Below are positions 28,091-63,657 of a stretch of 64,000 nt of DNA, one piece after another; position 1 is the first letter of the stretch; each line of letters opens with the position of its first letter. The DNA lies in NCBI GenBank assembly GCA_951406725.2, contig OX597814.1, positions 73,408,001 through 73,472,000 of the forward strand, read 5' to 3'. Source of the DNA: Octopus vulgaris (lineage: Eukaryota). A program made the position numbers and the translations under genes. A model generated the notes under the pieces. That model was not told the DNA's origin and searched no databases. It saw only the letters and a list, made by a program, of their open reading frames with translations.

Positions 28091-28300
28091 AGGGTATCTA
28101 AAAGATACCACCACGCTACAGATAGCAGTCAAAACTTGACTCTAAACCACATCAAGTATTCATAGAGCACCAGGAGAAATTAATTTTTTGCTAGATTATA
28201 TGTCTCTGTCTTTTCTCCTGGTGGTGTATGAATACTTGACGTGGCTTTAGAGTCAAGTTTTGACTACTATCTCTAGCATGGTGCCATATTTAAGTTACCC
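28091..28300. repeat. Diverged inverted repeat (~88-bp arms)
   Basis: AGTCAAAACTTGACTCTAAA / TTTAGAGTCAAGTTTTGACT and CACCAGGAGAAA / TTTCTCCTGGTG. Confidence 0.85.
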
Positions 28301-28348
28301 ATTATATATATACCATGATATATATATATCATGGTATATATATATCAT

Positions 28349-28393
<45 letters not shown>

Positions 28394-28568
28394 TATTTCA
28401 ATCATTTGATGGGACCAGCCTTTAGTCGAACATATCGACCCCAGAGCTAATTCTTTGTAAGCCTAGTACTTATTCTATAGCTCACTTTTTGCCGAAACGC
28501 TAACATACGGGGACATAAAGACACCAGTAGCGGTTGTTAAGCGATGGTGGGGGGTACAAAATCAAACA

Positions 28569-28610
<42 letters not shown>

Positions 28611-28612
<2 letters not shown>

Positions 28613-28732
28613 AATTAAGGACTGAACACGAAAAGTGGACAGTCAACATGCTAGATATAGACGTCAAATCGCCATTTGACGTCTATATCTAGCATGTTGA
28701 CTGTCCACTTTTCGTGTTCAGTCCTTAATTGG
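28611..28732. repeat. Perfect palindrome, 59-bp arms, 4-nt loop CGCC
   Basis: 28611-28669 is the exact reverse complement of 28674-28732; followed by a ~90-bp unpaired tail and (TA)n. Confidence 0.97.
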
Positions 28733-28849
28733 TATATATAAATATTTTAATCTTCGGATTCTTTTTAATATGCTAGACCACTGGTTTAAATTGACTAATA
28801 TCAATTTCTACCCTTAATTAATTTATATATATATATATATATATATATA

Positions 28850-29032
28850 TGTAAATATAATATGTGACAATTATTCGGTAGCCATGATAAAACTCCGAGT
28901 TTCAGATGTCGGGGCCATCGTTATCGGGCCATCGAAAAAAATGAAGAGATGCCGCCGTGGGTTTCGGCCCCGACATCCGAAACTCGGAGTTTTATCATGG
29001 CTACCGAATAATTGTCACATATCATATTTACA
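28850..29032. repeat. Inverted repeat, 67-bp arms, with a mutated hammerhead core in spacer/right arm
   Basis: 28850-28916 vs 28966-29032 with 2 mismatches. Plus strand ATGAAGAGATGCCG...CGACATCCGAAACTCGGAGTT is homologous to 51126-51220. Confidence 0.92.
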
Positions 29033-29088
29033 GATAAATTCTTCTATTTACATAATATCGGGGTCTCTTTCATTCTTTTGCTGTCTTC

Positions 29089-29138
<50 letters not shown>

Positions 29139-29286
29139 CGGACCGCTTTCTACCAAATCCAGCCACAAGGATTCGGTCGGCACGAGGCTATAGTAGTAGA
29201 GACTTGCCCGAGGTGCCATGCAGTGGGACTGAACCCGGAACCATGTGGCTGATAAGCAAGCTACTTACTATAAAGCCATTCCTGCG

Positions 29287-29324
<38 letters not shown>

Positions 29325-29487
29325 GTTTGCTAGATAGACCACGTGGGTGGAAGCGGAGTACAGAAATTTACGCCTGCGCATTTTGAGTTTGTTGACACTG
29401 TTAGTTGGAGTGGTTCATCTGAAGCGACAAGTTCGCTGATAGGTAAAGTTCCTTCTTTTTAGTGTTTCCAAATCCAAATTAAGAAAT

Positions 29488-29550
29488 TTTGAGCTGACGA
29501 AAGAAATGCTGATTTTATTTGGCTAATCTTGAAACGTTGACGTACTCAAA
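29488..29550 (+). ncRNA. Canonical type I hammerhead ribozyme candidate
   Basis: UUUGAG-CUGACGA-AAGA...UCUU-GAA-ACG(UUGA)CGU-A-CUCAAA: complete core, 6-bp stem I, 4-bp plus extended stem II, stem III hairpin. Predicted cleavage after 29544 (GUA). Confidence 0.85.
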
Positions 29551-30070
29551 CGATCTATGTACTTGTGATATTTTTCTGTATTTACCTCCAAACCTTCGTG
29601 AGCTGTCTGGAGTAAACATTATCCGAGAGAAATTTTCTTTAAGTAGTAGAAATAGCTAAAAAAATTTTTTTGGCTGCTATTTCTACTAAGTTCAGTATGT
29701 GGCAAAGTAATTTATTTTACTAAGCCCTAATTATATAATGTAATATTTTGAATTCGCCTTAAATGGTCCTTTACATACTGAACACTTGGTGAAATTGATT
29801 AATTAATTAATTTTACCCTCAATTGTTGATATATATATATATATATATTCAGATATATTATATAATAGTTTCAGTATTAATAGTTTCACTATGTATCTGT
29901 TATATACATGTAGACAGTATTAATAGTGGAAGTATTAAAACTGAAAGTATTATTCCATGTTAGAATGGAGATGTTATTGTTTCACTTTTGAACGTAATAC
30001 TGAAATAATGTAAAAGATGAGATTGCAACAGGCTTGCATTAGGCCCATGACAAACTAACAACTTCTTGCC

Positions 30071-30149
<79 letters not shown>

Positions 30150-31018
30150 GTAAAAGCAATTAAGATTCAATTGAGTTCTGTTGAATTCACATGAATGCGG
30201 TACTTAACTTAGATGCACCAGAAATCTATATCGTATTAACCATAAGATAATGCGGGGTGATTATAAACGTGTATCATTTCGCACGAGTTTGACCATGCAA
30301 TCCCTTGATACACGTCGCCGTCGGAAAGAAGTGAACTCGTGAGTAACAAGTTGTTCTGAGCCTATAAGCTAACAACACTGTTATTCACCAAGATGCCATA
30401 TAAAAACGAAGAAAAAGAAAAAGAGAAATATTAAATGCTTTTAAAAAATCCTTGTAATAATGACCTTTGCCAAGATTTCTCAAAATATTAGTGATTTCGT
30501 ACATTACTTATCTTTGCCAAATTCAAATTGTTTAAATATTTTTCTGCCTATCTTCCCCAATACTATTTCTTATTTCTTATCTCTCCATCTCCCCCACATC
30601 TATATCCTTTACTAATTTCATTACGATTTTTCTGAAATCTCCTTTTGATCATTGGAAGAGGATTTGCCATTATTTGGTTTTCAGTTCAGAAAATGTAAGG
30701 CAACACTAATGTAACAAACGCATATATACACGTATATATACATAAACACATTTACACACACACACACACACACTAGCATGTGTGTGTGTGTGTATCTGTG
30801 TGTGCGTGTAGGTCTGCGTGTGCGTATAGTTGAGTGCTTCTGTATGTGCTTGTGTGTTTGTGCATTTTGTGAATAGGTATAAATACTGGCATCAATAAAA
30901 AATGTGAAGTATATCATTTCTGGGTGTGTTGTAGAATAAACATTTCCTAGAATATTTGTTACTACACACTAACAGAAACACACAGACGCATATTTGTATG
31001 AATACACACTCACGATAC

Positions 31019-31117: not shown

Positions 31118-31119
31118 AA

Positions 31120-31260
31120 ATTATAATCTAGGGTATCCAGCGTGGCAGCATCTCTTAGATACCCTAAAATATAATGTTTATAATAATTATTACCTTTGAA
31201 GGTTTTTATTCCCATGATGGCCACTTGATAGGATCGATATTTAAATTAACGATCTTGTCC

Positions 31261-31261
<1 letters not shown>
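31120..31261 (+). mobile_element. Short hairpin+tail element; related copy at 40967-41095 (-)
   Basis: ATTATAATCTAGGGTATC..GATACCCTAAAATATAAT hairpin, then a tail matching the reverse complement of 40967-41095. Both copies abut microsatellites. Confidence 0.7.
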
Positions 31262-33004: not shown

Positions 33005-33212
33005 GAATAAATTCTATGAGGTACATTTCTTACAGAAAAAAAGAATCAGAGCTAGTCATCAAACGGTCTGTGGTAGAAAAACTAGCAAACTGTTTACATG
33101 AATGTCTGTTGTGGGGATGTGGTTATGCTCATAATGCATACATATAAGAACACACACAATATATATATATATATATATACTTTATTTTAAGCAGCAGAAA
33201 ATTCAACAAAAT

Positions 33213-33250
33213 CTGTTACTCCGAGTTTCTCGTTGCCGTTCATCAGACAG
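33213..33250 (-). ncRNA. Minimal type I hammerhead ribozyme candidate
   Basis: CUGU-CUGAUGA-ACG(GCAA)CGA-GAA-ACUC(G)GAGU-A-ACAG: 4-bp stem I, GNRA-capped stem II with an A-A closing mismatch, near-palindromic stem III. Confidence 0.75.
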
Positions 33251-33597
33251 TTTTTGCTAGAATGGAACTGATATATCAATTCAATCTAGACTCTTACAAA
33301 CGCTACACCTTTAAAAAGAAATGGACTTGTTTGATTGGCCCTTTAGAAAAAAACGGTCAATCTTCGAGCGATAAACAAAAAGGTCAAAAATATATGTATA
33401 TATATATAAAAAAGCTTATAAAAATTATAAAATCCGAGGAAAAACCTTACATTGAATAAAATACATATTGACATTAATGAAGAAAGTATAAATTAATTCA
33501 TAGGAATTACACCTGTTATAAATATTACACTGCAATACATATTTTTATTAAAATGTGCATATATATATCAACATACACAAACATACATATTCCTTCG

Positions 33598-33748: not shown

Positions 33749-33800
<52 letters not shown>

Positions 33801-34076
33801 TAAATTAGAGATAAAACCACTATTAGGCAAATCAAACAATGAAAAACATAAACCAAAACATAAAAATAAACATAATTAATATGATATACAAAATATATAA
33901 AATATGAAATTTAAAATTTGAATTATTTAATTAAAAATTTTTTAAATTTATATTTATAAATTTTTAATTTTTTAAATATTTTAAAATTTTAAATTAATAA
34001 ATTTTTAAATTTTTAATTAAAAAAAAATATAACTATCAAAAACTATTAAAATGTTTAATATAAGATAATAAGTAAA

Positions 34077-34175
34077 ACCACTACGTACGTTTCATGGCCA
34101 TAACCTAATTCGAATTACAATAATTTAAGTTCAATTAAAAATTCGAATTATAGTTATAATCAATCTTCAGGTTAA
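34077..34175 (-). ncRNA. Hammerhead ribozyme candidate with long stem II (left arm)
   Basis: AAC-CUGAAGA-UUGAUUAUAAC...GUUAUGGCCAU-GAA-ACGUACGU-A-GUG. Core intact, palindromic stem III, weak stem I. Confidence 0.65.
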
Positions 34176-35663
34176 TGATAATAGTTAAATAAATAAGCAA
34201 ATATATTTGAACAATATTTTTAAAGAAATAAATAAAATAATAATTTTTCTTATAAAAAACTCTATTATCAAACTAGAAACTTTAACGACTAAATTATTAA
34301 AATATTAAAATATATTTAATAAAAAGGTTTACTTATTTTTCAAAAATCGTGTCATTAACTAAACTAATAATAAACAAATGGAAAATTCTTTAACAATGAA
34401 AACTACGAATATATTTTATCAATGAAAAATACTACTACAATTATCAATTGAAAATAGCTATAATAGAACAAAGTCAACTATTAGAGATATTTATGAATAT
34501 ATAATATGGCTTAAAAAAACACAATAAACTCACAAATATCCATAACTCAGTTATAGTCCAAAAATTTAATTACCAAATTATTTAACTAAATATTCGTTAT
34601 TCATATTTTAGATTTAAGTACACATCTAATAATTATAAAATATTTAAAAATAATAACTAAATTACTATCAATAAATATTGTGATTAAAAACTAAAATTTA
34701 TGCTATCAATAAATGTATAGACATATAAAGAAAAATAAATTGATTAATTAATCCAATACTACTTACATAAATACTTAATATTAATATAATATAATTATGA
34801 GATACATTAAAAAAATTAAAGATTAAAATCAGATTAAAACTAGAAACCTAACTTTAAAAAATCGTATAACTATTAACGATCTATATATCTCTTTGACTAA
34901 GTAAAATCTTATTTTACTATTTTAATAATTTATATTATATGGTATTTATTGGATACTATATAACTACGGATTGATAATTTGATTGTATAAGTATTTAGTT
35001 GTTGAAGATATGTATTTCATTATTTCATTATTAGATCATAACTACACGGTTTTTGTAAGTTATTAATTAGCCAACGAGATATATTGATAGTTAAATAGTT
35101 ATAGGGTTTTTTTAAAGAAAGGTTATACGTTTACAATTTGCTTTTTCATCTTTAATTTTTTAATTTTTTATACATTTCGTAAGTAATAATGGAATAATTA
35201 ATTTATTTAGTTTTTTTTATAATACGTATATATATTTATTGGTAGAGATAATTTTAGATCTTAATTATTATATTTATATATATTTATTTATAATAATTTA
35301 GTTATTATTCAAATATTTTATAATTATTAGATTTGTACTTAAATTTATTAATATGAATAGTGATTATTCTTTTGATTATTTTTTTGTTTAATAATTGGGT
35401 AATTAGATATTGACTATAACTGAGATTAGGTTATTCGTGAGTTTATTTGTTTTTTAAAACCATATTATATCTGAATAGATAAATACATTTTCTATCTATT
35501 TTTACCTTAAAAATTAATATTTAACATCATAATTGGATTGTATGACATAATCCTAATTGTTAAAGTTTGATAATAGAGTTTTTTTATAAGAAAAATTATT
35601 ATTTTATTTATTTCTTAAAAAATATTGTTTAAATATATTTGCTTATTTATTTAACTATTATCA

Positions 35664-35762
35664 TTAACCTGAAGATTGACTATAACTATAATTCGAATTT
35701 TTAATTGAGCTTAAATTATTGTAATTCGAATTAGGTTATGGCCATGAAACGTACGTAGTGGT
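35664..35762 (+). ncRNA. Hammerhead ribozyme candidate with long stem II (right arm)
   Basis: CTGAAGA at 35669-35675 and GAAACGTACGTA at 35746-35757; inverted copy of 34077-34175. Confidence 0.65.
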
Positions 35763-36029
35763 TTTACTTATTATCTTATATTAAACTTTTTAATACTTTT
35801 TGATAGTTATATTTTTAAAAAAATTTTAAATTTAAAAATTTATTAATTTAAAATTTTAAGATATTAAAAAATTTTTAAAAATATAAATATAAATTTAAAA
35901 AATTTTAAATTTAAATAATTTAAATGTTAAATTTCATATTTTATATATTTTGTATATCATATTAATTATGTTTATTTTTACGTTTTGGTTTATGTTTTTC
36001 ATTGTTTGATTTGCCTAATAGTGGTTTTA

Positions 36030-37300
36030 CGAGGGGCGTTCAATAAGTAATGCCCCTGACCCACTTCCCATAGCAGTAGAGCAACGAAACTTGGCACAGG
36101 TATTAGTCTTTTTCTACATAGGAACAACCCAGAGGTACACATTTCTCCCATCGTTTGATGCAGTTCTGGAGACCGTTTTCGTAGAAGACCCCAGCTTGGT
36201 CCTCCAACCACGACGTGACTTCAGAAATCAAGGCTGCATCATCTGGGAAACGCTTTCCTTTCAAAAACAACTTCATGGCTGGGAAGAGGTGAAAATCAGA
36301 GGGTGCAAGGTCAGGAGAGTAGGGGGATGGGGGAAGAGTTCATAGCCGCACGCCTGTGCTTCTGATCTGGCGACACGCAAGTTGTGGACCGGAGCGTTGT
36401 CCTGCAGGAGGGGGATGCCTTTGCTGATCTTGCCCTGCCTCTTGGTTTCGATAGCTTCTCTTAATTTCCTCAAAAGTGAAACATGATAGGCTCCTGTAAT
36501 TGTGGTACCCTTTGCCAGGAAATCTGTCATCACTACTCCGTCCTGGTCCCAGAAGACTGTGAGCATGACCTTGCCAGCGGAGGGCTGCACCCTTGCCTTC
36601 TTTGGAGGAGGTGAGTCATGGTGCTTCTACTGCATTGACTGGGCTTTGGTCTCTGGATCTTAGTGATGGACCCAGGTCAGATCCTGTGTAATCAGTCTTT
36701 TGAAAAATTTTGACTCATCTTCTTGGCACATCCCTAAATTCTTGCTTCTGGAATTCTTGCGTTCTTGCTTCTGGAAAAGTGTGAGCAACCTGGAAATCCA
36801 TCTGGCAGACACCTTTTGCATATGCAAATGGTCATGAATGATAGTTTCCACAGACCCGGTACTAATCTTGACCTCATGGGCTATTTGGCGAATAGTTATG
36901 CATCGATCTTCCAAAATGGCAGCCTCAACTTGACGGACAGATGCCTCATCAATGGCAGAAGGGGGCTACCAGATCTGGGAGCTGTTTCCACAGAGTTCCG
37001 ACCATGTTTGAATACACGATGCCAGCGTTTTACAAGGTCATATGATGGGGCATCCTGTGGTGTGCGTCATTTCAAATACAAAAACCGGATCACTGCTCGA
37101 CACTCAACATGCTCCATTTCCCACTTGACTCATTTCAAAGACCTGTAAATCAGAAACCACAATTAGTTCGGAGCTGTAATTTATCACTTAATCTATAGAG
37201 ATATCAATAATTGCACATGCAAAATCAAACAAGCTAGATCAAACAGCTAGATCAAACAAAGGCAAGTGGGTCAGAGGCATTACTTATTGAACGCCCCTCG
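36030..37300 (-). mobile_element. Full-length mariner (DD34D) transposon, defective
   Basis: TIRs CGAGGGGCGTTCAATAAGTAATGCC.CTGACCCACTT with TA TSD (36028-36029 / 37301-37302). Motifs KVSARWISRLL, GKVMLTVFWDQDG, QDNAPVH; stops and frameshifts. Confidence 0.95.
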
Positions 37301-37621
37301 TATCTATAATTTAATTTATATTTATATTGTGAAATTGAATTTAATCCTAAATCTAATTTTCCCCTGTAAGTTTGGATTTACTCCCTAATATATATATATA
37401 TATATTATGTGAAATAGAAAGATGAATAATCTTGTAGTAGATTAATCAAAAGTTTAACCGATACCTTAGTAGCAAAAATCACAGCCGTAAACAGCACGGT
37501 TGGAGGTACAACCATATGGTGTTGCAACCGTGCGTTGGTGCGGATACTTGAAATTAAAATATTATTGGTGAATTGAAGAAATGGAGCTGAACGCAGATTG
37601 AACAGAAATCGTTTTATTTCA

Positions 37622-37701
37622 TTCTACACGTGTTTCGAACGGCACAATTTACCAAAATCCGATTGAATAATGGGACCATATTGTGTCTTTCTCTTCAGGA
37701 A
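37622..37701 (-). ncRNA. Type I hammerhead ribozyme candidate with extended stem II
   Basis: UUC-CUGAAGA-GAAAGACACAAU...AUUGUGCCGUUC-GAA-ACACGUGU-A-GAA. G10.1-C11.1 pair and palindromic stem III; lies inside a TA-flanked element at ~37405-37775. Confidence 0.75.
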
Positions 37702-37789
37702 GAAAATAGGAAATCCGTTGGAAAAAACAAAAACAGAACAGAGGCGGAGCAAAAAACAAATCGAACTAGGCTCCTATATATATATTATA

Positions 37790-37847: not shown

Positions 37848-38573
37848 CACAACTGGGAGGAAGGGAGTGTGGGACGAAACGACGAATCGAATCGACCCTG
37901 ACACGAACGCGCTGTCAGACAATAATGTAATAAATAAAATATATGCATGCATACAAACATATATGTACGTACCTACATCTACATGTATATATACATGCAT
38001 ATATAAATATATATACGTGAGTACAGGACACTGCAACTAGGCGTAGAACTCAACGAAAAACGAAACGGACAAGCCATATTTTTACAACAAAAGAACAGAG
38101 ACGAAACGAAAACGGGAAAAACTTTATTTTTTACAACAGAAAAACAAGGTACAGGACAAACCACACAGGAAAAATCCCCAGTTCATCAGCTGTCTCTAGC
38201 TAACTCAAGCGTGTTTCGAAGGATAAAACAGGACACGACTCGTCAACTAGTTCTTCATTGCGAGAGAATTAAAATAAAATTGCCTCGCATAGGGGCAAAA
38301 ACAGACAAGAAAAACTTGTGACAAAAACAGGACGTAAAAACGATACAAATGCAAAAAAAAAAAAAAATATACAAGATAAAGATACACGTACAAGAAAATA
38401 CAAAACGAGAAATAAAATGAAAATACAATACGAGAAATCAAAAGACAAGAAAACAAACGAGAAAAACAAAACGAAAAGGCCTTTGTTTGGCAAGACGAGG
38501 ATGTTGAAGTAGCAGCGCAAGGGAACACGTCCTTTCAGCTTGAAAGCAGGAGGCGAAAGGAAGTATATATATA

Positions 38574-39839: not shown

Positions 39840-40620
39840 ATACAATAATACTAATTTTTCAATATACAAAGTTCAGAAGAAATACAAGAGGACTTATCAG
39901 AGGGATAGGTACTACAGATCAGGCATTTTATAGAAGCACCAAGCCTTTCTACTGCTTTAATCCATAGTCTAGCCTTACCTAATGTTTTTCTGAAAAGGTA
40001 TGCTAGTTCGCTGCCTGGGGTAGCATCGATGAACATGACGCTCTGGTAATTTTTTGTTGTCATACCAAGTGTTGGCCTTATTTGCCTTATTACTGGTCCT
40101 TTCGGTGCTGTTCTAGGATTTACTTCTGTGCAGCGGGCAGATACCTTTAGCATCACTCTCTATGATGGCTTTGTACTTAGTCCTCGCTTTGTACATTCTA
40201 ATCCTGTCCCTTTGGTTGTAGCCAGGGAACTACATGCAGTGAATGAAGTGTTGTATGTGTCTTTCCGATTCTATAGGGTCGCATATGCGAGACACATTCC
40301 TCATCACTCTCATCAAGTCAGCTATAAGAATGTTGAACATGGCGTTGTCCACAATCGCTGCGTTCTTAGAGGCCATGGGTTTGGCATAACGAGAGTGAAG
40401 GATCTGGACCTTACCTTTCTTCGTTTCTAGTCAGAGTTATGTGTCTAAAAAGGGGCAATCTATAGTTTAAGTGCTTACTAGTGTAGTCTGTCGTTATTTC
40501 AATACTGTAGTGGATGCAAACACTCGCCAGTCACATACATAATCTCAAAAATAGGAATACTCCATCTAACTTATCATGGTCCATAATAGATTCAGGTCTT
40601 CCATAACAGGGTCAACACTC
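39840..40620 (-). mobile_element. Penelope-like element fragment (RT thumb/linker to start of EN)
   Basis: YQSVMFIDATPGSELAYLFRKTL...IKAVERLGASIK...P...C...LC resembles the PLE linker preceding GIY-YIG; decayed. Confidence 0.6.
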
Positions 40621-40903
40621 AGCCTGTAAGTTATGCATAAAAGAAGCATTCCGAATATTAAAATGTAACTCTTCAAAACTACTAAATAAGTATAATGAGC
40701 CCCTAGGTACATGCAACCACCGTTTTTACATACTTTCAAATTTTACGACAAATCTAAATTCAGCCTGAATCCCCACTCAGTATATATACCGAATATCCCT
40801 TAGGTGATCTCCAACAATCTTATTTGACTTTTCAATTTTTCAATTTTAATCTTAAATTTTTGATCGTTTAATAAAACATACATTTACAAACACACACATA
40901 CAC

Positions 40904-40969
<66 letters not shown>

Positions 40970-41171
40970 ATAAGATCGTTATTCTAAATTAAATAACGAT
41001 TTTATCAAGTGGCTAGCATGGAAATAAAAACATTCAACGGTAATAATTATTATTAAAATTATAATTTAGGGTGTCTACGAGATACCGCCATGTTGAAAAT
41101 AACAGCTAGATATTTATATACATGTATGCGTATGTGTATAGGTACATAAGTATTCGGGTTTATGTAATACT

Positions 41172-41432
41172 GCGAAAGAAGCACGTCGTATATATGTGTG
41201 TGTGTGTTTGTGTGTATATGTTTGTGTGCTTGTGTTTGTCCCCCATCATCGCTTGACAACCGATTTTGGTGGATTTACGTCCCCGTAACTTAGCGGTTCG
41301 GCAAAATTGACCGATAGAATAAATATGAGGCTTACAAAGAATAACTCCTGGGATCGATTTGTTCGACTAAATAGGCAGTGGTCCAGCATGGCCGCAGTTA
41401 AATGACTGAAATAAATAAAAGAATAAAAGAAT
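41172..41432 (+). mobile_element. OK-type SINE 3' half
   Basis: TTTACGTCCCCGTAACTTAGCGGTTCGGCAAAA and CCAGCATGGCCGCAG tail. Confidence 0.85.
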
Positions 41433-42682: not shown

Positions 42683-42685
<3 letters not shown>

Positions 42686-43089
42686 TTTTATTCTTCTACT
42701 TGTTTCAATCATGTTTCTGCGGCCCTGCTGGACCACCGGCTTGAAGGATTTTAGTCGAACAAATCAACCCTAGGACATATTTTTTAAAGCCTTTTACTTA
42801 TTCCATTAGTTTTTTTTGCTGAGCCGCTAAGTTACAGGAACGTAAACACACCGAACCAGTTGTCAAGCGGTGATGGGGGACAATCACACACACAAAGACG
42901 CACAAACAAAGATATATATATATATACACAAGCGTACATCTCCTTCTGTCTACCAAATCCACCCCCAAGACCGTGGTCGGTCCGAGGCAATAGTAGTAAA
43001 CACTTATCCCAGGTGCCATACAGTGGAACTGAACCCAGAAGCATGTGGTTGGGAAGCAAGCTCCTTACCACACAGCCACGCCTGCACCT
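42683..43089 (-). mobile_element. OK-type SINE, full length
   Basis: Collinear with 22193-22588 and 54353-54750. Confidence 0.85.
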
Positions 43090-46521: not shown

Positions 46522-48663
46522 CACTGGTCAACAGTCAATTTTCATCAGAGATATTATATAGTGTTTTATATGTAGTTTTATCCGCAGATTGCAAAAATGT
46601 AATCGGTTTCCTTCTATCAGGCACAGTTTTTCTGATGAGATAAGAGAGGTATATAACTCCCATCAGCAGTATCTCTATACATAAACGTCTTATACAGGTA
46701 AATTCTGACTTTGTCAAGGCATTGGAAGAACAGTCCTGATATATTTTGTCATGTCCGTGGTTCATTTACCGCCAAAGCTCAGCAATGTGCCATCACAAGT
46801 GAAATCAAGAATATCTGCCAGTTATACTTTGGCTGCTCTCTCGGGGAACAAGATAAGAGTTGGGCCCCGCACTCCATCTGCTCAGTTTGTTCAAATGGAC
46901 GAAGGGATTGGCTAAATAAGTGGAAGTGAGCAATGCTGTTTGCAATGCCTATGATATGGAGAGAGCCAAAGGATCATTTATTGGACTGTTATTTCTGCAA
47001 CGTTAATGTATGTGGGTTTACTGTAAAGACCAAGCATAAGATTGTGTATCCCAACTTGGAATCAGCAAGAAGACCAGTACCACACAACGATGATGATCTT
47101 CCTATTCCAATACCACCACAAAATGGCCTCCAGATGTCTGACGAAGATGTATTTCCTGAAGAAAATATTACTGCTGTCGAAGACACCGAAGTGGGTGCAG
47201 ATTTCACTATTGAAAATGAAGACGTACCACAGAAATTTTCTCAAGGAGAGTTAAATGATTTAGTTACATACTTGTCATTGTCGAAGGATAAAGCTGAACT
47301 ATTAGCCTACAAGAAAAGTGTCTGCTTAAGAAAGACGTTTGTATTACTCATTTCAGGAAGAGAAATAGGGGTCTGACTTCATGCTTCTCTGTTGATGGAC
47401 CACTTTGTTTCAGTAATAACACTGATGAGTTATTTCGCTGTTTGTTCCAAGAGCATGTTCCAGCTGAATGGCGCTTATTCATTGATTCATCTAAGAGAAG
47501 CCTCAAAGCAGTACTACTACGCAACGGCAATAAGAAACCATCCATTCCCATAGGACATTCAGTGTACATGAAGGAGTGTTATGAATACATGCAAGTACTC
47601 CTCAATGCCATAAAGTATACAAACTACAGCTGAAAAATATGTGGAGACTTGAAAGTAATTCGAATGTTGATGGGAATGCAATCTAGGTTCACCAAATATT
47701 GTTGCTTTTATGCCCATAGGACAGTTGTGCAACTAAAAAGCACTATGTGCAATCAGAGTGGCCTTTGCGAAAATCATATGAGCCAGGAGTTTCTAGCGTC
47801 CAGAGTAAGCCACTTTTAAACCCAGAAAATGTTCTTCCTACCCCTCTTCACATAAAGCTTGGCTTCATGAAACAATTCGTGAAGACACTTGCCAGGAAAA
47901 GCTCAAAAGGTTTTGAATATGTGAAGGCCAAATTTCCAAAAATCCCCGAGGCAAAACTGAAGGAGGGCGTATTCATGGGTCCGCAGATAAAATAACTCCT
48001 GAAGGACAACCACTTCCTCACAGAACTGGATGAGATTGAGCTTAAAGCCTGGGAATCCTTCAAATGGCTCTGTGAAAATTTTCCAAGCAACAAGAGATCT
48101 CTAGAATTTAGAAATGGAGTGAAATGTCTTCTAGATTCCTACGCTGCAATGGACTGTTGAATGTCGCTAAAATCCATTTCCTTGATTCACATCTGGACAT
48201 TTTTGCAGAGAACCTTGGAGCAGTGTCTGATGAACAAGAGGGACGCTTTCATTAAGATATTGCATCGATGGAACAACGTTATCAAGGATTTTGGAATGCA
48301 GGAATGTTAGCTGACTACTGTTGGATGTTATACATGTATGAACCTGAGACAAAACACCATAGAAAGTTCAAATCCCAAAGATTTTAAGTTGTTATGCATT
48401 TGAGTGTATTCTAACTTATTTGTACGCAATAATTTTAATTTTGTACAATAAAAAGCCATGAAATTATCGTATCTTGTATTCAATATACTTTATATAGACA
48501 TGCTTTACGGATCCTAAGTTAAAACAGCGGGTATCATTAACATGAAAATGTGACCAGATAGAAGAAATCGGACTTCAGATTCGTAATCAGCATCAAAACT
48601 TAACCCAGAAAAGTCAATCAGCAACTCCGAAGATTAAAAAAAAAATCATTTTGTTGACCAATG
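46522..48663 (+). mobile_element. Full-length Chapaev3-type (CMC superfamily) DNA transposon, transposase pseudogene ~46700-48390
   Basis: TIRs CACTGGTCAACA / TGTTGACCAATG. Motifs PDIFC, QDKSWAPHSIC, WREPKDHLLDCYFC, WRLFIDSSKRSLKAVLL, ICGDLKV, LHIKLG, SDEQEGRFH; multiple stops and frameshifts. Confidence 0.92.
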
Positions 48664-48779
48664 ATATTAGTGCAATATTCAAAAATACACACATACACAC
48701 ACATGTATATACATATATATATATACATATATATATGTATATATATATATACATATATATATATACATATATATATATA

Positions 48780-49438: not shown

Positions 49439-50705
49439 CGAGGGACGTTCAATAAGTAATGCCTCTGACCCACTTGCAGTTGTTTGATCTAGCTGAAATG
49501 TTGCATGTGCAATCATTTATATCTCTATAGAGTAAGTGAGAAATTACATCATTTATATCTCTATAGAGTAAGTGACAAATTACAGCTCCGAACTAATTGT
49601 GGTTTCTGATTTACAGGTGTTTGAACCGAGTCAAGTGTGAAATGGAGCATGTTGAGTGTCGAGCAGTGATCCGGTTTTTGTATTTGAAAGGACGCACACC
49701 ACGGGAGACTTTTGATGAAATGAAAGTAACTTATGGTGATGTTGCCCCATCATATGACCTTGTAAAATGCTGGCATCGTGAATTCAAACATGGTCGGAAC
49801 TCTGTGGAAACAGCTCCCAGATCTGGTCGCCCCCTTCTGCCATTGATGAGGCATCTGTCCGTCAAGTTGAGGCTGCCATTTTGGAAGATCGACGTATAAT
49901 TATTCGCCAAATAGCCCATGAGGTCAAGATTAGTACCGGGTCTGTGGAAACTATCATTCATGACCATTTGCATATGCAAAAGGTGTCTGCCAGATGGATT
50001 CCCAAGTTGCTCACGCCTTTCCAGAAGCAAGAATGCGTCGAGTGCTCGAGGGTGAATTTGGAGATGTGCCAAGAAGATGAGTCAAAATTTTTCAAAAGAC
50101 TGATTACACAGGATGAAACCTGGGTCCATCACGATGATCCAGAGACCAAATCCCAGTCAATGCAATGGAAGCACCGTGACTCACCCCCTCCAAAGAAGGC
50201 AAGGGTGCAGCCCTCCCCTGGCAAAGGGTACCACAATTGCAGGAGCCTATCATGCTTCACTTTTGAGGAAATTAAGAGAAGTTATCAAAATCAAGAGGCG
50301 GGGCAAGATCAGCAAAGGCATCCTCCTCCTGCAGGACAACGCTCCGGTCCACAACTCGCGTGTCGCCAGATCAGAAGCACAGGCGTATGGCTATGAACTC
50401 CTCCCCATCCCCCCTACTTTCCTGACCTTGCACCCTCTGATTTTCACCTCTTCCCAATCATGAAGTTGTTTTTGAAAGGAAAGCGTTTCCCAGATGATGC
50501 AGCCTTGATTTCTGAAGTCACGTCGTGGTTGGAGGACCAAACTGGGTTCTTCTACAAAAACGGTCTCCAGAGCCACATCAAACGATGGGAGAAATGCGTA
50601 ACTCTGGGTGGTTCATATGTAGAAAAAGACTAATAACTGCCATGTTTCGTTGCTCTACTGCTATGGGAAGTGGGTCAGGGGGCATTACTTATTGAACGCC
50701 CCTCG
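49439..50705 (+). mobile_element. Full-length mariner (DD34D) transposon, defective
   Basis: Same TIRs as 36030-37300, located in a TA tract. MEHVECRAVIRFL..., WIPKLL, QDETWVH, QDNAPVH; frameshifts, ~60-bp internal deletion, ~35-bp 5' UTR duplication. Confidence 0.95.
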
Positions 50706-51160
50706 TATATATATATATATATATGTATGTGTGTATGTGTGTGTGTGTATATACATATATGTATGTATATGTATATATTATATTATCAAATAGAAGTGAG
50801 TATATATACATATGTATATATGTGTGTGTGCATGTGTGTGTGTGTGTTTATAATTCAGAAATTCATCCAAAATTTGAAAGGCAGTAACGAAACCTTATTT
50901 TGTACAAAATTGTATAATACTTTTACTCTTATGATTCTAAAATATTCTTTCGTCTTTTAAAACAAATCTTCTGTGTTTTTTCATCTTATTTTTTTCCGTG
51001 GGTCTATGTGTGTGTGTGTGTGCGAGTGCGTGCGTGTGTGTGTATGACTATGCCTATATATATGGCGATATATACATGCATATATGTATGTAGATATTTA
51101 TGTACATATATATATATATATATATCTGTAAAATAATATGTGACATTTATTCGGTTGCCA

Positions 51161-51223
51161 TAATAAAACTCCGAGTTTCGGATGTCGGAGCAGAAATGTG
51201 CTCCGGCATCTCGTCAGTTAATA
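51161..51223 (-). ncRNA. Type I hammerhead ribozyme candidate downstream of a PLE endonuclease remnant
   Basis: UAUUAA-CUGACGA-GAUGCCGGAGCA(CAUUUC)UGCUCCGACAUC-C-GAA-ACUC(G)GAGU-U-UUAUUA. Confidence 0.7.
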
Positions 51224-51498
51224 AGACAAAACAAAAATGCTATGAAAATGACCGTTAAACAAAGGTAAATTACTATGAAGTTGACCGCTATTAAGATAAA
51301 CAGAAGAGCCATTAGAATGACCGTTATGTAAAGGGAAATAAACCGGAAAGGGGAGAAAGTAAAAACTGTTCATCGGATTCGCGTTTGCGTGCATGCACGT
51401 ACATACACATGCGTACACGCACACCTACATACATGTGCATATATAGATATGCTCACTCACACTCGCATGAGACACAAACATGCACACCCACCCACCCA

Positions 51499-51979: not shown

Positions 51980-52084
51980 TGTAAAAATTATATACAAAAT
52001 ATTGAGAGATAAAATGCTTATAGGTGGACACAATATAAAAAGCAGGTCTATCTGTGTTCTTGGGAGGACAAAACACTTAACATG

Positions 52085-52330
52085 ATCCAAAAAGTTCAGT
52101 TCTTGAATTTAGACATGTTGCGAGGTCTAAGCTGCATTTTCAGATGAGCCATCATTCCATATGACAAAGACCGCACTTTCCACTACCGTTGGTGTAAAGC
52201 TTGCACTTGGCTAAGATCTTCCAATGGATGTTGTAATTGACACCTTTTTCTTTTAAGGACCATATGTAACTGGATAATTTGGTTGGGAATTTTAAAGCCA
52301 TGTTCCAATAACACACCTTGAGCTTCAGGT
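52085..52330 (-). mobile_element. Penelope-like GIY-YIG C-terminal remnant
   Basis: TKLSSYIWSLKEKGVNYNIHWKILAKCKLYTNGSGKCGLCHME, homologous to the ORFs at 25690-26013 and 61408-61908. Confidence 0.85.
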
Positions 52331-53459: not shown

Positions 53460-53483
53460 TACGAACACACTTATATATATAAC

Positions 53484-53608
53484 CAAAATAAGCAACAAGG
53501 ATATCCTTGTTGCTTATTTTGATTTTAATCACCTTACTTTGAAATTGTATGGATAATACCGTACTAAATTCTGGTGCCTCAACTTAAGTACCATATTCAT
53601 CTGAATTT
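53484..53608 (+). mobile_element. ~125-bp palindrome+tail element (copy of 43118-43247)
   Basis: Perfect 38-bp palindrome 53484-53521, CAAAATAAGCAACAAGGAT|ATCCTTGTTGCTTATTTTG. Confidence 0.88.
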
Positions 53609-53894: not shown

Positions 53895-53897
<3 letters not shown>

Positions 53898-54330
53898 ATT
53901 ATCGATCGCACATATTCAATGTATGTGTTTTGTTTGTTCGCCGATATTTTGCCATTTTTGTGGCTTAGCAATTCATTTTTGAATTTAATCTTACATATCA
54001 TCGATGTTGCATATCAGCATATAGTTCTTACGCCATTTATATATAATCATAGACTGGCGATTCGATTCGCGCTGGTACGCTTCAAGTATGCGATGTTGAT
54101 AAGCCACAAATATGGCAAAATATCCTTATCCATCTCTCTTGAAATCGATCCGAGGTGAGGTATCTTGCCTATCTGTGACTTTCCTGTGTTTTAATATCCA
54201 TCGTTAACAGGAGTCGTCTGCAAGGGCTATCTCGCAGCGAATCCAGCGAACAGATAAAAGACATACATTGAGTATATGCAATCGATAATGCTTACACCAC
54301 TAGCGCTGGTTTTAATTCGTTGAAGTGAAT
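53895..54330. repeat. Diverged fold-back with asymmetric insert and short tail, TA-flanked
   Basis: 53897-53937 pairs with 54246-54290, and 53943-53980 pairs with 54081-54124. Confidence 0.75.
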
Positions 54331-54352
54331 ATATATATATTTATATTTATAT

Positions 54353-54750
54353 AGGCGCAGGCGAGGCTGTGTGGTAAGGAACTTTCTTCCCAACCACATG
54401 GTTCCGGGTTCAGTCATACTATGTGACACCTTGGGCAAGTGTCTTCTGCTGTAGCCTCGGGCCGAGCAAAGCTCGTGAGTGATTTGGTTGACGGAAACTG
54501 AAAGAAGCCCGTCTCATATATGTATGTATGTATGTATGTATGTATTTGTGTGTCTGTGTTTGTCTACCATCACCGCTTGGCAACCGATGTTGGTGTATTT
54601 ACGTCCCCGTAACATAGCAGTTCGGCAAAAGAGACCGATAGAATAAGTGCTATGCTTACAAGGACTAAGTACTGACGTCGATGTTTTCGACTAAAAGCGG
54701 TGGTCCAGCATTGCCACAGTCAAATGACTGAAATAAGAAAAATAATAGAA
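54353..54750 (+). mobile_element. OK-type SINE, full length
   Basis: GGCGCAGGCGAGGCTGTGTGGTAAG head, GGGTTCAGTC B-box-like motif, shared tail. Confidence 0.88.
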
Positions 54751-54766
54751 GGACACACACACACGC

Positions 54767-56599: not shown

Positions 56600-57270
56600 A
56601 GGATGAGAGAAAGGTGGAGGGTTAAATGTAAACCGGAGGAGTGTTGAGCCCATCTGGCGCAAAGAAGCGAAGAGTGAAGATTAATCCTTGCTCACAGCGA
56701 AGACGGGAGTCCAGAGGGCCCCTGTGCAAGGACAATCTGAACACAGACAGGTGTTGTAAAGAGTAACCGAGTTGGATGTCTCGGAGGTGTTCCACGAACC
56801 GGTCAGCCAAACCGCGTCCCGTTTGACCGATATATAGAGAAGGACAGAGAGAGCAGGAGATGCAGTAGATGACGTTGCTAGAAGTGCAGGTGAAGGAGTC
56901 AGTGATATGACAGGGTCGATGATGGTTTTCACTGCAGAGCCTGTGCAGAGGAATTGGGAATAGGAGATGAAGAGCTTGGTGTATTTAGGGTGGGAGGAGG
57001 AGAAGTTGAGGTATGAGCGTGAGTCTGTGTGTTTGTAGTGGATGGAAGTGGTGAGAGTAGAGTGATGAATGCTGACCGAAATGTCGAGAAAGGTGACTGA
57101 GGTGTCGGAAATAGTGCAGATGTGGAGGGCAGGATGGAAAGATTTGACAAAAGAGAGGAAAGAGTCTAGATGTTCGCGGGAGAGTGAGGTCGCACCGATA
57201 CAGTCGTCAATACAACGACCGTATAGTTCAGGAGTGGGACCAGTGAAACTTGAGAATATTTTGGCCTACA
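56600..57270 (-). mobile_element. Penelope-like (Neptune-like) RT/GIY-YIG fragment with internal deletion
   Basis: YGRCIDDCIG...VTFLDISV...TSIHYKHTDSRSYLNFSSSHP (RT), then FTCTSSNVIYCISCSLCPSLYIGQTGRGLADRFVEHLRDI (GIY-YIG). Confidence 0.88.
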
Positions 57271-60796: not shown

Positions 60797-61151
60797 TACA
60801 TATATATATATACATATATATATACATACATACACATATACATACATGTACATATATATATACATACACACATACACACATACATATATCAACAATTGAG
60901 GGTAAAGTTAATTAGTTATTAATCAATTTCACCAAGTATTCAGTATGTAAAAGGACCATTAGAAAATATTCTCTAAGTAGTGGAAGAGGCTAAAAAACTT
61001 TTTTGGCTGCTATTTCTAGAAAGTTCAGTATGTGGCAAAGTAATTTATTTTACTTTACTAAGCCCTAATTATATAATATTTTATACATGCATACACATAC
61101 ATACACACATACATATACACATACATATGCATACACACATATATACATATA

Positions 61152-61184
<33 letters not shown>

Positions 61185-61330
61185 GCACATACATATACAT
61201 ATATATATATATATATTTTTTACATACATACACACATACACACACATAAACATGCGTATATTCCTACTATACCCATACATTTCTATACATATATACGATA
61301 CACATATACAAGCGTGCACATACAATATGT
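58500..61330. repeat. ~2.8 kb of cryptic (CA/TA)n low-complexity sequence
   Basis: Directly visible alternating purine-pyrimidine tract with short unique interruptions; strongly C/A-biased on the plus strand. Confidence 0.92.
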
Positions 61331-61407
61331 GAAAGGTCTTAGGAGAAAAGGTAATCGGGGGTGCTAGGGGAACGGTGGGATTGGGGGGGTTTGTGGGTGG
61401 GGTGTCA

Positions 61408-62392
61408 TCAATCTGGTTGCCGGGTAGGTCTATAGTTCTTGTAGTTCGCATACTTCTTATGCATGCAATTTGGGGAGTGTTCTGAGATTTTGTTAAGGAG
61501 AGGGCCTTTGGCGAACAAGATCTCTAGGCTCTCCGATATGCAGAGGTCACAGCAGGTATGGCCTCCTGTGTACGAACGCGCCTTCTGTAGTAGTTTCCAC
61601 TTGGTCTTGAATGGGATGGAGTTCCTTTTAAGGTACCAGATGTGGGCGGCGAGGGTAGTTTGGTTGGATTTATCCTGTCGCCGGAACGAGTGTGTGTGTG
61701 CGTACCAACGGGTCTTAAAGCTGTTTGACGTCATTCCGATGTAGGATTTTCTTTTATCGTCAGGGCCTGATCTTACCTCGCATGTATATACTAGGTCCCT
61801 CTGTAGGCAGTTGTTGTTGAGGGGGCAGGTGGTTTTATCAGGGCAGTTGCAATTGCTATCGGACGTAGGATGGGCCTCGGAAAAAGTAGATATGTTAAGT
61901 TTTTTCACATTGTTGTTGGCTAGGTTCCTGGCTAGATTGGGCGTGGTAGAGTAGGAGAGTCTAATAGTGTTCTTATTTAGGATAGTGTAGTACTTATGTT
62001 GGGTGGGGAAGTGTTTCTGTAGGAGAGTGAAGAAGATTTTAGCTACAGGTGTAGCGACCTCACGGTTGAAGGGGGGGGGTTGTACCAGCTAATGTGTCTT
62101 CGTCTATTTTTCCTGGGTTGGCGTGGGGCTATACTAGTATAGGTAATCTTATCTTTAAAGCCACTGCGGGCCAGGGCCTCGTTGTAATAGGGGGCTGCGG
62201 CCTTAAAGATATCTTCCGTGGCGGACAGGCTAGAAATTCTAATTGAGACACTTTTTACTAGGTTATCTAATATATTTTTGGGGTGGTTGGAATTAATATC
62301 TATATATCTAAGGGATTCATTTGGTTTGTGGTACGGGTAATAGAGTGAGGTTTTTAAGTCGAGGGTGACGTCAAGGAAGTTAGCTTTTGTTA
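61408..62392 (-). mobile_element. 5'-truncated Penelope-like element: RT thumb + complete GIY-YIG endonuclease
   Basis: TKANFLDVTLDL..YPYHKPN..SNHP..WYNPP, one frameshift at the G9 run (62070-62078), then an open frame to CNCPDKTTCPL..LVYTCEV..YIGMTSNSFKTRWYAHTHSF..HIW..CDLCISE. Confidence 0.93.
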
Positions 62393-62423
62393 ATATATAT
62401 ATATCTATATATATATATATATA

Positions 62424-62676
62424 GGTCACAGATATGCGACGATTTCTGGACAATGGTCATCAGTAAAACTTATAGCAGTAATAAACGAGTGAAGAACGAA
62501 TTTATAGTGCATGAGTATATTTGTGAAAAAAAAAAAAAAAAGAAAAAAGAACATCCCGAAATGCAACAATATCTGCTTCAGCACACGGTTTCACATAAAG
62601 AATCTTGCAACACAAATTCATAAACATACACACACACGTATATATGTATATATATGTATATGTATATATATATCTA

Positions 62677-62755
<79 letters not shown>

Positions 62756-63040
62756 ATATATATATATATATATATCTATATATATATATATATATAGGTC
62801 ACAGATATGCGACGATTTCTGGACAATGGTCATCAGTAAAACCTATAGCAGTAATAAACGAGTGAAGAACGAATTTATAGTGCATGAGTATATTTGTGAA
62901 AAAAAAAAAAAAAGAAAAAAGAACATCCCGAAATGCAACAATATCTGCTTCAGCACACGGTTTCACATAAAGAATCTTGCAACACAAATTCATAAACATA
63001 CACACACACGTATATATGTATATATATGTATATGTATATA

Positions 63041-63045
<5 letters not shown>
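62424..63045 (+). repeat. Near-identical tandem duplication, period 373 bp
   Basis: Units start at 62424 and 62797; they differ by one substitution and A-run/microsatellite length. Confidence 0.95.
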
Positions 63046-63135
<90 letters not shown>

Positions 63136-63146
63136 ATATATATATA

Positions 63147-63223
<77 letters not shown>

Positions 63224-63234
63224 ATATATCTATA

Positions 63235-63330
<96 letters not shown>

Positions 63331-63487
63331 TTTGAGTAGTTGAATGAATTATCTTATTAAGGATAATTCGAATTAACCGATACCTGGGTAGCAAATTCAC
63401 ATCAGAAAAAACGGTTGAAGTTACGTGCCTAGGGCATAGATTACGTGCTTTCGTGTGGAAATTTGTATGTTTATCTTAAAAATATAG

Positions 63488-63647
63488 ATATATGAAAGAA
63501 TGGAGCTGAACGACAAATTAACAAATTTCCTTTATTTTCGACATATGTTTCGAAGGCTGCATATTCCTAATTGCGAAGGAATATGCAGCCTTCGAAACAT
63601 ATGTCGAAAATAAAGGAATTTTGTTAATTCGTCGTTCAGCTCCATTC

Positions 63648-63657
<10 letters not shown>
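63488..63657. repeat. Near-perfect palindrome, 81-bp arms, 8-nt loop, with ~155-bp tail on the left
   Basis: 63488-63568 vs 63577-63657 with 2 mismatches. Left arm and tail resemble 37410-37640 (ATGGAGCTGAACG, TTAACCGATACCT..GTAGCAAA, TGTTTCGAA). Confidence 0.95.

Follow-up and report, generated by a model that had tools for sequence, protein, structure and literature searches.

The formation of tandem and inverted ends in Penelope-like elements (PLEs) is described as an open problem (PMC8557442), and a 64-kb stretch of Octopus vulgaris DNA, hereafter the window, raises it in a concrete form: how do hairpins with one-sided tails come to lie again and again in (TA)n runs? An earlier note listed ten such fold-backs (A to J, Table 1) and read them as PLE insertions completed by self-priming of the cDNA. 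The explanation proposed here, that they are 5'-truncated PLE insertions into (TA)n which would arise by twin priming, has as a whole an even chance of being correct.

Table 1. Fold-backs, related ends and neighbouring elements in the window
Feature	Positions	Strand	Description
A	28083-28306	.	D/Z-family hairpin, roughly symmetric; its two arms stop at one internal site; no direct PLE marker
Beside A	27719-28083	-	PLE-type 3' end, hammerhead 27959-28015; terminus like X
B	28611-28823	+	Near-perfect 61-bp hairpin, 4-nt loop; 91-bp tail like 3' end of X
C	28851-29090	+	Hammerhead in long arm (28941-28991); 22-nt junction insert with local duplication; 58-bp tail
D	31118-31261	+	Weak fold-back of ~20 bp, 87-bp tail, in (TATC)n; 81% identical to Z; no direct PLE marker
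E	33798-37387	+	Outer arms 33812-34274 / 35564-36029, hammerhead motif in each; 69-bp tail 37319-37387
F	43117-43245	-	Zero-loop hairpin of ~20 bp, 90-bp tail; no direct PLE marker
G	44969-45920	-	5'-truncated PLE in (TA)n; inverted terminal copy 45675-45920
G parts	45402-45678		GIY-YIG C-terminal fragment; then 3' region; direct terminal repeat 45008-45255; 36-bp tail
H	53482-53608	+	Second copy of the F structure, 89.6% identical to F; no direct PLE marker
I	53895-54328	+	Nested fold-back; decayed hammerhead 54096-54130; 34-bp tail
J	63325-63651	-	Hydra-type 3'-end fold-back; arms 63494-63568 / 63577-63651; 168-bp long-arm extension
K	51126-51380	-	Solo 3' end of the C family, hammerhead 51167-51217
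W	60872-61080	.	X-family inversion without duplication; no inverted repeat (P 0.24)
X	29323-29828	+	Solo PLE-type 3' end, complete hammerhead motif 29494-29544, flanked by TA runs
Y	37406-37774	-	Solo 3' end of the J family, hammerhead motif 37625-37698, flanked by TA runs
Z	40968-41110	-	Solo end of the D/A family without fold-back
Hydra-type PLE	23423-26928	-	Broken partial tandem: RT, endonuclease, two terminal repeats
Hydra-type PLE ORF	61217-62392	-	5'-truncated, between TA runs, without fold-back
Mariner-type DNA transposon	36030-37300	.	In right arm of E; terminal inverted repeats, TA duplication

Hairpins, flanks and tails

The hairpins are real, and an inverted repeat is present at all ten coordinates of the earlier note. 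The scores of A, B, C, F, G, H, I and J exceed those of all 200 composition-preserving shuffles, and E, compared with six shuffles only, scores 1524 where the null maximum is 94. Nine of ten sites thus pass the test; the exception is D, which is marginal (31 against a null maximum of 48, P about 0.025). Matches over aligned columns are 440/466 in E (outer arms), 217/251 in G, 77/89 in A, 64/66 in C and 73/75 in J, and 71/72 in B, 20/21 in F, 23/25 in H, 18/21 in D and 42/49 in I, the last five alignments extending a few bases into flanking repeats. Arm identity across the sites is 85-98%, the arms of A, G, I and E being 5-15% divergent and those of B, C and J 97-99% identical, and perfect stems of at least 21 bp occur in four of nine measured sites (B 59, C 44, G 41 and J 42 bp). 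Arms of ~18 bp to ~1 kb had been described; the largest arm, in E, shrinks to about 460 bp plus a separate older inner inverted repeat. E is very AT-rich (14-22% GC), and this inner repeat (34488-34911 / 35056-35481) scores 357 against a null of 111 +/- 9; over aligned columns the inner arms are 83% identical (older) and the outer arms 95% (young). The right end of E is interrupted by a mariner of 1271 bp, a second copy of which (49439-50705) has an ORF that matches the Mos1 transposase (E 1e-4). Fold-back artefacts of library or assembly, which the near-identical arms of B, C and J might suggest, are scarcely credible, because the arms of A, G, I and E have diverged and the mariner, with its target duplication, sits in one arm of E only. 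Moreover, F and H recur with independent mutations and the end sites are family-specific.

The TA flanks hold for nine of ten sites, in which one arm lies 4 bp or less from a (TA)n run, and fail for D, which lies between (TATC)n arrays; the long end of H reaches (TATG)n first. Among 20 non-microsatellite inverted repeats hand-picked from scans of the window, 11 abut (TA)n against 4-6% expected, and since nine of these 11 are sites of the earlier note, the enrichment is partly that reader's own selection. Outside those sites, two of ten inverted repeats abut TA. The tail said always to continue one arm is found, with asymmetric ends, at the eight sites measured (34-168 bp: I 34, G 36, C 58, E 69, D 87, F 90, B 91 and J 168), but is doubtful in A, whose two arms stop at one and the same site of the family. 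The canonical PLE tail of 30-40 bp is matched by I and G, two of the eight, and the six longer tails (58-168 bp) imply that the start or end sites in use number more than two. The 365 bp beyond A resemble a separate hammerhead-bearing 3' end and may be either the tail of A or a separate insertion.

Probable Penelope-like identity of the sites

A PLE origin of the sites is very probable. The PLE reading draws on sequence evidence in six of ten sites (G, J, C, E and I, with a weaker case for B), which are assigned to PLEs on that ground, and on architecture only in A, D, F and H. Most hairpins are 5'-truncated PLE 3' ends, and the inverted 5'-truncated terminal repeat with a tail is a known insertion pattern, already in print as had been claimed (PMC8557442 and the available part of PMC3846280).

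PLE coding sequence is present directly in one of the ten sites, G, and by linkage in J. The endonuclease fragment of G is 84% and 77% identical to the Octopus bimaculoides proteins P0154 and P0155; its match to Pfam GIY-YIG is weak (E 0.009, below the cut-off), and a hammerhead-like motif lies at 45807-45838. J is homologous to Y (E 8e-16) and, at E 5e-5, to both terminal repeats (25146-25420 and 24755-25031) of a Hydra-type ORF, and the homology of these repeats, which belong to the element at 23423-26928, ties J and Y to a coding PLE. This element matches an HMM of 86 related proteins with E values down to 1e-51 and has a DKT motif in its translation (24003-24461), and the ORF at 61411-62088 has CxCx5C, CxxC and CxH motifs. 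The eight sites other than G and J, including E, gave no match to the Hydra HMM.

Hammerhead motifs in sense orientation were found by descriptor in C, E, G and I, as a half motif in J (full in its relative Y) and for B only via X; the arms of A, and D, F and H, contain neither a hammerhead nor an ORF. The homology of B and X is weak (72%, z 9.9), and nhmmer did not recover it. The descriptors, which were loosened after the data had been seen, gave six matches against 0.6 expected and, for a second one, three against 0.03. Rfam gave no hammerhead among the matches listed (one search: best 150 of 250), and one of seven candidate hammerhead regions folded better than its shuffles. All six sites with an independent sense marker have head-to-head polarity, with the 3' ends outward and the tail at the 3' end; the other four of the ten have no such marker.

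The TA flanks, the near symmetry of A and the repeats near both ends of I would also suit MITEs of a TA-targeting DNA transposon. This identity is highly improbable for the set, because the eight measured sites are asymmetric, relatives occur without an inverted repeat, the sites carry PLE coding or hammerhead features, and the true mariners of the window differ in appearance. It is already largely refuted for B, C, E, G, I and J.

Turns, short-arm ends and the route of insertion

The sequences had been called unrelated, a description that fails for six of ten sites, which have relatives inside the window. The kin groups are F with H; A with D and 40968-41110; C with 51126-51225; J with 37406-37774 and 25146-25420; and B with 29323-29828. 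The flanks of H and F share homology confined to microsatellites and beyond these are unrelated loci. B sits within the internal TA run of a split repeat of ~400 bp, whose paralogue (42685-43090) has a short TA run only (42912-42926) at that place. Over several families, the whole window has about ten fold-backs and twelve plain PLE-type ends, and a single inversion that lacks a duplication. C and K, J and Y, and D and Z show each family with and without a fold-back, so that the fold-back arises per insertion in those families. This speaks against some units being non-autonomous PLE derivatives in which the palindrome belongs to a master and is re-copied whole, an explanation that is improbable, although turn, arm length and tail are repeated at two loci in F and H, E carries an old inner inverted repeat within young outer arms, and palindromes 18 and 38 bp long have been described in pLTRs (PMC3846280, in its available part).

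A new observation is that the short arms stop at recurring internal TA-like sites, common to a solo copy and to W. The terminus of K is the short-arm end site of C, the two forming a pair of tail-minus and tail-plus ends; one end site is common to both arms of A and to D; F and H have an identical turn and an identical short-arm end; and the internal end of W aligns with the short-arm end of B. In W, two pieces point outward, one of them 3'-terminal (X 29762-29830) and the other from further upstream (X 29630-29739), and the 22 bp between them are missing. With junctions positioned by eye, alternating-TA microhomology at the short-arm ends sums to 35 nt against 16.3 expected (n=9, P 1.4e-4), and to 29 against 14.8 without W (P 0.002). 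The turn of G spans 419 nt with an overlap of 3 nt or less, and that of D has no overlap. When the turns of C, D and G are compared with relatives or with the long arm, no pre-existing stem is seen, and none is seen at that of I from its nested layout, in which 121 bp of the right arm are missing from the left.

TA runs were looked for at the turns and none was found at any of them. This bears on an origin after insertion, through a template switch during replication or through separate insertions of opposite orientation within a single TA run. The instability of (TA)n runs and the opposite-facing pairs of another repeat at 20652-21126 speak for it, but such an origin is very improbable in view of the turns, the consistent outward polarity of the 3' ends (six of six) and the recurring family-specific end sites.

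Given a PLE origin, twin priming has a little better than an even chance of being the main route. The GIY-YIG endonuclease would cut the self-complementary TA target on both strands, and each of the two target 3' ends would prime reverse transcription. The start site would be the distal one for one end and, for the other, an internal one that is often UA-rich and lies 35-170 nt upstream, after which the two cDNAs would be joined 3' to 3'. A distal cDNA that passes the internal site would give a hairpin and an unpaired tail as long as the distance between the two start sites; one that stops short would give an inversion with a small deletion, as in W; and priming from a single end would give a plain solo 3' end. 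The hairpins would be by-products rather than a dedicated system.

In cDNA snap-back, a short palindrome lets one target-primed cDNA fold back and make a copy of itself, and the other target end catches it via TA microhomology. Self-priming has been inferred from palindromes of this sort at inverted junctions, with an antisense template there (PMC3846280, as far as available). The loops are small at B (4 nt), F and H (0) and J (8 nt), F and H share a palindromic turn, and the loop of J lies immediately upstream of the half-hammerhead GAAA, where Y has a long stem II. Snap-back also predicts the head-to-head polarity and the TA microhomology. On the other hand, it needs an extra later deletion for W, lacks a reason for the short-arm end of C to coincide with the solo terminus of K, where microhomology is 1-3 nt only and better TA sites lie nearby, and meets no pre-existing stem at C, D and G. 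Overall, it is a possible but rather unlikely general explanation. The claim that self-priming completes integration is therefore supported at the tight turns of B, F/H and J and opposed by W, the recurring short-arm ends and the four stemless turns (C, D, G and I), and the end-site pattern agrees slightly more closely with twin priming by the two ends of the cut target.

Several observations also weigh against twin priming. W stands alone and could have begun as a hairpin whose centre was later lost, and short-arm TA microhomology is expected under snap-back too. Loops of 0-8 nt (B, F/H and J) would rarely be given by two independently truncated cDNAs, and the turn of F and H is identical. 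Where a tight turn lies at a natural RNA stem, as it probably does in J and perhaps in B, F and H, it may come from snap-back or from annealing of the two cDNAs, with the same product.

Known systems and significance

Hydra-clade PLEs, including Hydra-1_Obim of Octopus bimaculoides, have a GIY-YIG endonuclease at the C-terminus, a CxCx5C linker, CxxC/CxH around the E/N, DKT, a (TA)n target and a hammerhead close to the 3' end; for Penelope-13_HM, an inverted copy truncated at the 5' side was noted (PMC8557442). Set against these descriptions, the ORF-bearing neighbours at 23423-26928 and 61217-62392 show the published motifs; among the fold-backs, homology to a Hydra-type ORF is found only for J, which would join the clade on that basis. 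The endonuclease of G is of another type (about 16 bits to the Hydra HMM), and the families involved would be the Hydra clade and at least one other clade with a C-terminal endonuclease. Naiad PLEs also target (TA)n in Octopus and have the same tandem and inverted structure, but differ in their N-terminal endonuclease, CxC linker and lack of canonical hammerheads. P0155, the relative of G, has RT and then EN, which rules G out as a Naiad, whereas Naiads might be the source of the ends D, F and H. The general PLE insertion, an inverted 5'-truncated pLTR with an optional 30-40 bp tail (PMC8557442; PMC3846280, in part), is matched exactly by G and I, whereas most cases in the window are minimal, of 130-430 bp and without an ORF.

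In vitro, the purified Poseidon PAc protein of Anolis, predicted to be dimeric, cuts and extends both strands of an AT-rich target, and two internal RNA start sites of reverse transcription define the tail; in its available part, the source does not settle the later steps, nor does it trace the inverted copy to twin priming (PMC11167929). By a like logic, the two priming ends of LINE-1 twin priming yield a 5' inversion with an internal deletion, comparable to W, or a duplication, comparable to the hairpins (10.1101/2024.08.27.596794, in its available part). The sites in the window are not L1: they lack poly(A) and an APE endonuclease, their duplications reach hundreds of bp, and their target is a self-complementary microsatellite. 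No earlier proposal of twin priming for PLEs was found in searches of the open-licence PMC and bioRxiv literature. That the PLE signature, an inverted terminal copy with a one-sided tail, results when a symmetric (TA)n cut leads to twin priming from RT start sites that are fixed is a tentative proposal, put at somewhat short of an even chance.

The genome-wide source of dsRNA suggested in the earlier note is hypothetical, and only B, C, G and J of the nine measured sites keep the long perfect stems given above. siRNA from inverted Penelope copies is known in Drosophila (PMC3681739, as far as available), and since the architecture and self-priming have also been published, the finding as the earlier note stated it would not surprise a PLE specialist. 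In automatic annotation, remnants of 130-400 bp resemble MITEs or miRNA hairpins, and Rfam gives many sub-threshold miRNA matches in the window. As one 64-kb window is already so rich in cases, a genome-wide count could decide between snap-back and twin priming without bench work. If twin priming is true, solo ends, tailed hairpins and deletion-bearing inversions would be three outcomes of one reaction, and octopus genomes would hold a large fossil record that maps the RT start sites of each family.

TA-flanked hairpins and their tails

The window has a GC content of 36% and is rich in arrays of (TA)n, (TATC)n, and (TACA)n. The earlier note, which described recurrent TA-flanked hairpins across unrelated sequences with one arm always continuing as an unpaired tail, is largely right in its observation. 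An inverted repeat is present at all ten sites A to J, and an arm lies at most 4 bp from a TA run at nine of them. Eight sites score above all 200 local-composition shuffles, E reaches 1524 whereas its six shuffles peak at 94, and D, located in (TATC)n, is marginal (P about 0.025). Among 20 hand-picked non-microsatellite inverted repeats, left after microsatellite-derived rows had been removed by hand, 11 are TA-adjacent (4-6% expected), and nine of these 11 are the earlier note's own sites. Tails of 34-168 bp are found at eight sites, and "always" is not established at A, where no tail clearly belongs to the hairpin and both arms stop at one family site; the 365 bp next to A have a separate hammerhead and an X-like terminus. 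Nor are the sequences unrelated. Relatives within the window exist for six sites: F and H resemble each other, A and D are related to the solo end Z, C is related to K, J to Y and to two Hydra terminal repeats, and B, weakly, to X. No in-window relatives were found for E, G, and I. A further relative of F and H matches their tail only and is thus uninformative on the prior existence of the turn palindrome.

Hairpins, solo 3' ends, and neighbouring features (window positions)
Feature	Position	Strand	Description
A	28083-28306		hairpin
B	28611-28823		hairpin
C	28851-29090		hairpin
D	31118-31261		hairpin
E	33798-37387		hairpin
E interior	34275-35563		older inverted repeat
F	43117-43245		hairpin
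G	44969-45920	-	hairpin
H	53482-53608		hairpin
I	53895-54328		hairpin
J	63325-63651		hairpin
X	29323-29828		solo 3' end
K	51126-51380		solo 3' end
Y	37406-37774		solo 3' end
Z	40968-41110		solo 3' end
W	60872-61080		X-family inversion
F/H relative	30181-30268		tail match
Hydra-type element	23423-26928		broken
Endonuclease C-terminus	40520-40747	+	Hydra-type
Endonuclease C-terminus	52077-52289	-	Hydra-type
Permuted hammerhead-like cores	38180-38230	-	seen by eye
~400-bp family	22197-22589, 28390-29288, 41189-41432, 42685-43090, 54345-54751		TA-flanked, internal microsatellite; presumably SINE-like; the second copy hosts B and C, the fourth is their empty-site paralogue
Short repeat	20652-21126		two opposite-facing pairs; hairpins meet at short AAT runs; no (TA)n flanks; presumably SINE-like
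RT-GIY-YIG fragment	56622-57265	-	broken, another PLE type, which we take to be Neptune-like; followed by a GT-rich repeat
Tandem duplication	62393-63169		~400 bp, 96.6% identity, between microsatellites; either recent or an assembly repeat
Non-LTR fragments	13430-14583	-	broken reverse transcriptase (Pfam RVT_1)
DNA-transposon-like repeat	7708-8330, 46522-48671		diverged opposite-orientation copies, 89-98%

An artefactual origin of the hairpins is made very unlikely by arm divergence, which is 5-15% in A, G, I, and E, by a mariner insertion of 1271 bp, with its TA duplication, that breaks the right arm of E only, and by F and H, which are one structure present twice with independent changes in each. 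Because the mariner is confined to one arm, the E hairpin predates it. Moreover, B and C sit in a TA run inside a repeat of ~400 bp that is split there; a paralogue of this repeat has just a short TA run at that place, representing a paralogous empty site.

The older inverted repeat inside E (83% identity in aligned columns, many gaps) is surrounded by outer arms that are 95% identical, with unique blocks of 213 and 82 bp between, and the whole unit has 14-20% GC versus 36% in the window. By eye this interior suggested a Hydra ORF in decay, a reading that found no support: the best domain fell below shuffles and the Hydra profile gave no match. Mitochondrial or ciliate-code sequence found no support either, as tables 5 and 6 gave no convincing ORF, and directional hypermutation between the arms was not seen, with A/T transversions predominating.

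PLE identity, polarity, and hammerhead motifs

The reading of the hairpins as Penelope-like elements (PLEs) is right, by an independent sense marker in B, C, E, G, I, and J and by architecture only in A, D, F, and H, where such a marker is absent. In all six marked hairpins the 3' ends are on the outside, and the tail corresponds to the distal 3' portion. On the minus strand, G consists of an inverted terminal copy, a GIY-YIG C-terminus with one stop, a 3' region, a direct terminal repeat, and a 36-bp tail. Its endonuclease fragment matches two Octopus bimaculoides proteins at 84% and 77% identity, which points to an octopus origin of the window. In P0155, its relative, the endonuclease comes after the RT. 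The O. bimaculoides gene model P0154 joins an N-terminal PLE RT-thumb/GIY-YIG part to a long unrelated protein with Pfam PF05672, and is probably a mis-annotation or an exonisation of a G-family copy. The long arm of J is homologous to Y, as well as to terminal repeats in the broken Hydra-type element. Pfam searches of 12 window ORFs identified RT in two fragments that are not PLEs, plus a single weak GIY-YIG match; the window also contains broken retroelement and mariner ORFs, and RTE-like sequence is presumably among the neighbours. Fold-back is not obligatory for PLE-type ends: among 22 units tested it is absent in twelve such ends, three of them recognised partly by eye, X and Z have small internal stems only, and W is an inversion without fold-back.

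With hammerhead descriptors loosened after the data were seen, the first gave six motifs at a score of at least 10 (X, K, Y, the neighbour of A, and both arms of E) versus 0.6 in 40 shuffles, and 11 versus 2.0 expected at score 9, which is the score of C, while the second matched X, G, and I versus 0.03 in 30 shuffles. Rfam matches across the whole window were sub-threshold and mostly of miRNA type, with no hammerhead among the matches listed (150 of 250); those on 27720-29830 and 30150-30720 were likewise only sub-threshold, mostly miRNA-type, and included no hammerhead. In minimum-energy folding, most of seven motif regions failed to adopt a hammerhead. Given the loosened descriptors, the Rfam result, and the folding, the motifs are decayed at best. 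A fourth descriptor (short stem II) recovered none of the expected motifs, so the motifs at 33205-33262 and 27110-27160 are recognised by eye only.

The permuted cores, with GAAA ahead of the CTGA core, are possibly of the open-stem-II hammerhead type. The 3' regions of the two further Hydra-type endonuclease C-termini stop at TA runs and gave no hammerhead by descriptors; their ends are consistent with internal start sites.

Candidate routes to the hairpins: twin priming, snap-back, and re-copied masters

Both the hairpin architecture and the self-priming mechanism proposed in the earlier note are already published; the genome-wide source of dsRNA that the note also proposes is a conjecture. 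In their available parts, previous papers describe the inverted 5'-truncated copy and 30-40 bp tail of PLEs and the insertion of Hydra and Naiad families, Octopus ones included, into (TA)n targets, and state that how such structures form is still an unsolved question (PMC8557442); infer self-priming from palindromes at inverted junctions (PMC3846280); match siRNAs to inverted regions of Penelope copies (PMC3681739); report de novo PLE insertions, median 128 bp, in a microsatellite (PMC9977147); and list PLE families with recent activity in O. vulgaris (PMC13282606, whose available text lacks the words 'hairpin' and 'palindrom'). The accessible part of 10.64898/2026.07.22.740005 adds little.

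In snap-back, one cDNA folds back and copies itself, and in twin priming both cut target ends prime cDNA. W comprises the last ~70 bp of X and ~110 bp upstream; both pieces face outward, 22 bp are lacking, and nothing is duplicated. Since a self-copying cDNA cannot hold sequence that it never reached, W is at odds with snap-back, which would need an additional later deletion. L1 twin priming yields inversion with deletion when the first cDNA stops before the internal primer and duplication when it overruns (10.1101/2024.08.27.596794, available part), and W has the same pattern as the short-stop outcome. End sites also recur: the short arm of C and solo K stop at the same place, the internal end of W aligns with the short-arm end of B (weak homology), one site is common to A and D, and another to F and H. 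As a solo end marks a first-strand start, the match with K suggests that the short arm of C was also primed there. According to the accessible part of PMC11167929, a PLE protein acting in vitro on AT-rich DNA cleaves both strands and extends them, and it has two internal start sites on the RNA, which define the tail.

The turns of C (a 22-nt insert containing a local duplication), G (points 419 nt apart joined with an overlap of at most 3 nt), and D (no overlap) look like end joining. Loops of 0-8 nt in B, F, H, and J favour snap-back, or annealing at a natural stem; F and H turn on one shared palindrome, and J turns at a point where the hammerhead of its relative Y has a long stem II. Self-annealed ends can yield inverted duplications at L1 sites (10.1101/2024.12.14.628481, available part). 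Alternating-TA microhomology at short-arm ends (35 versus 16.3 nt expected at nine junctions placed by eye, P 1.4e-4) is predicted by twin priming and snap-back alike.

W, the recurring ends, the mixed turns, and the in vitro data together rank twin priming first, with an even chance of being the main route to the hairpins. Snap-back comes second and is rather unlikely, and the re-copying of palindromic masters is third and improbable; the three are not exclusive. This evidence comes from one window and a single W. A proposal of twin priming for Penelope or PLEs was not found in a search of open-licence PMC papers and the main text of bioRxiv preprints. What the window adds is a hint, open to testing, that the inverted-repeat-plus-tail signature of PLEs is explained by twin priming from fixed start sites.
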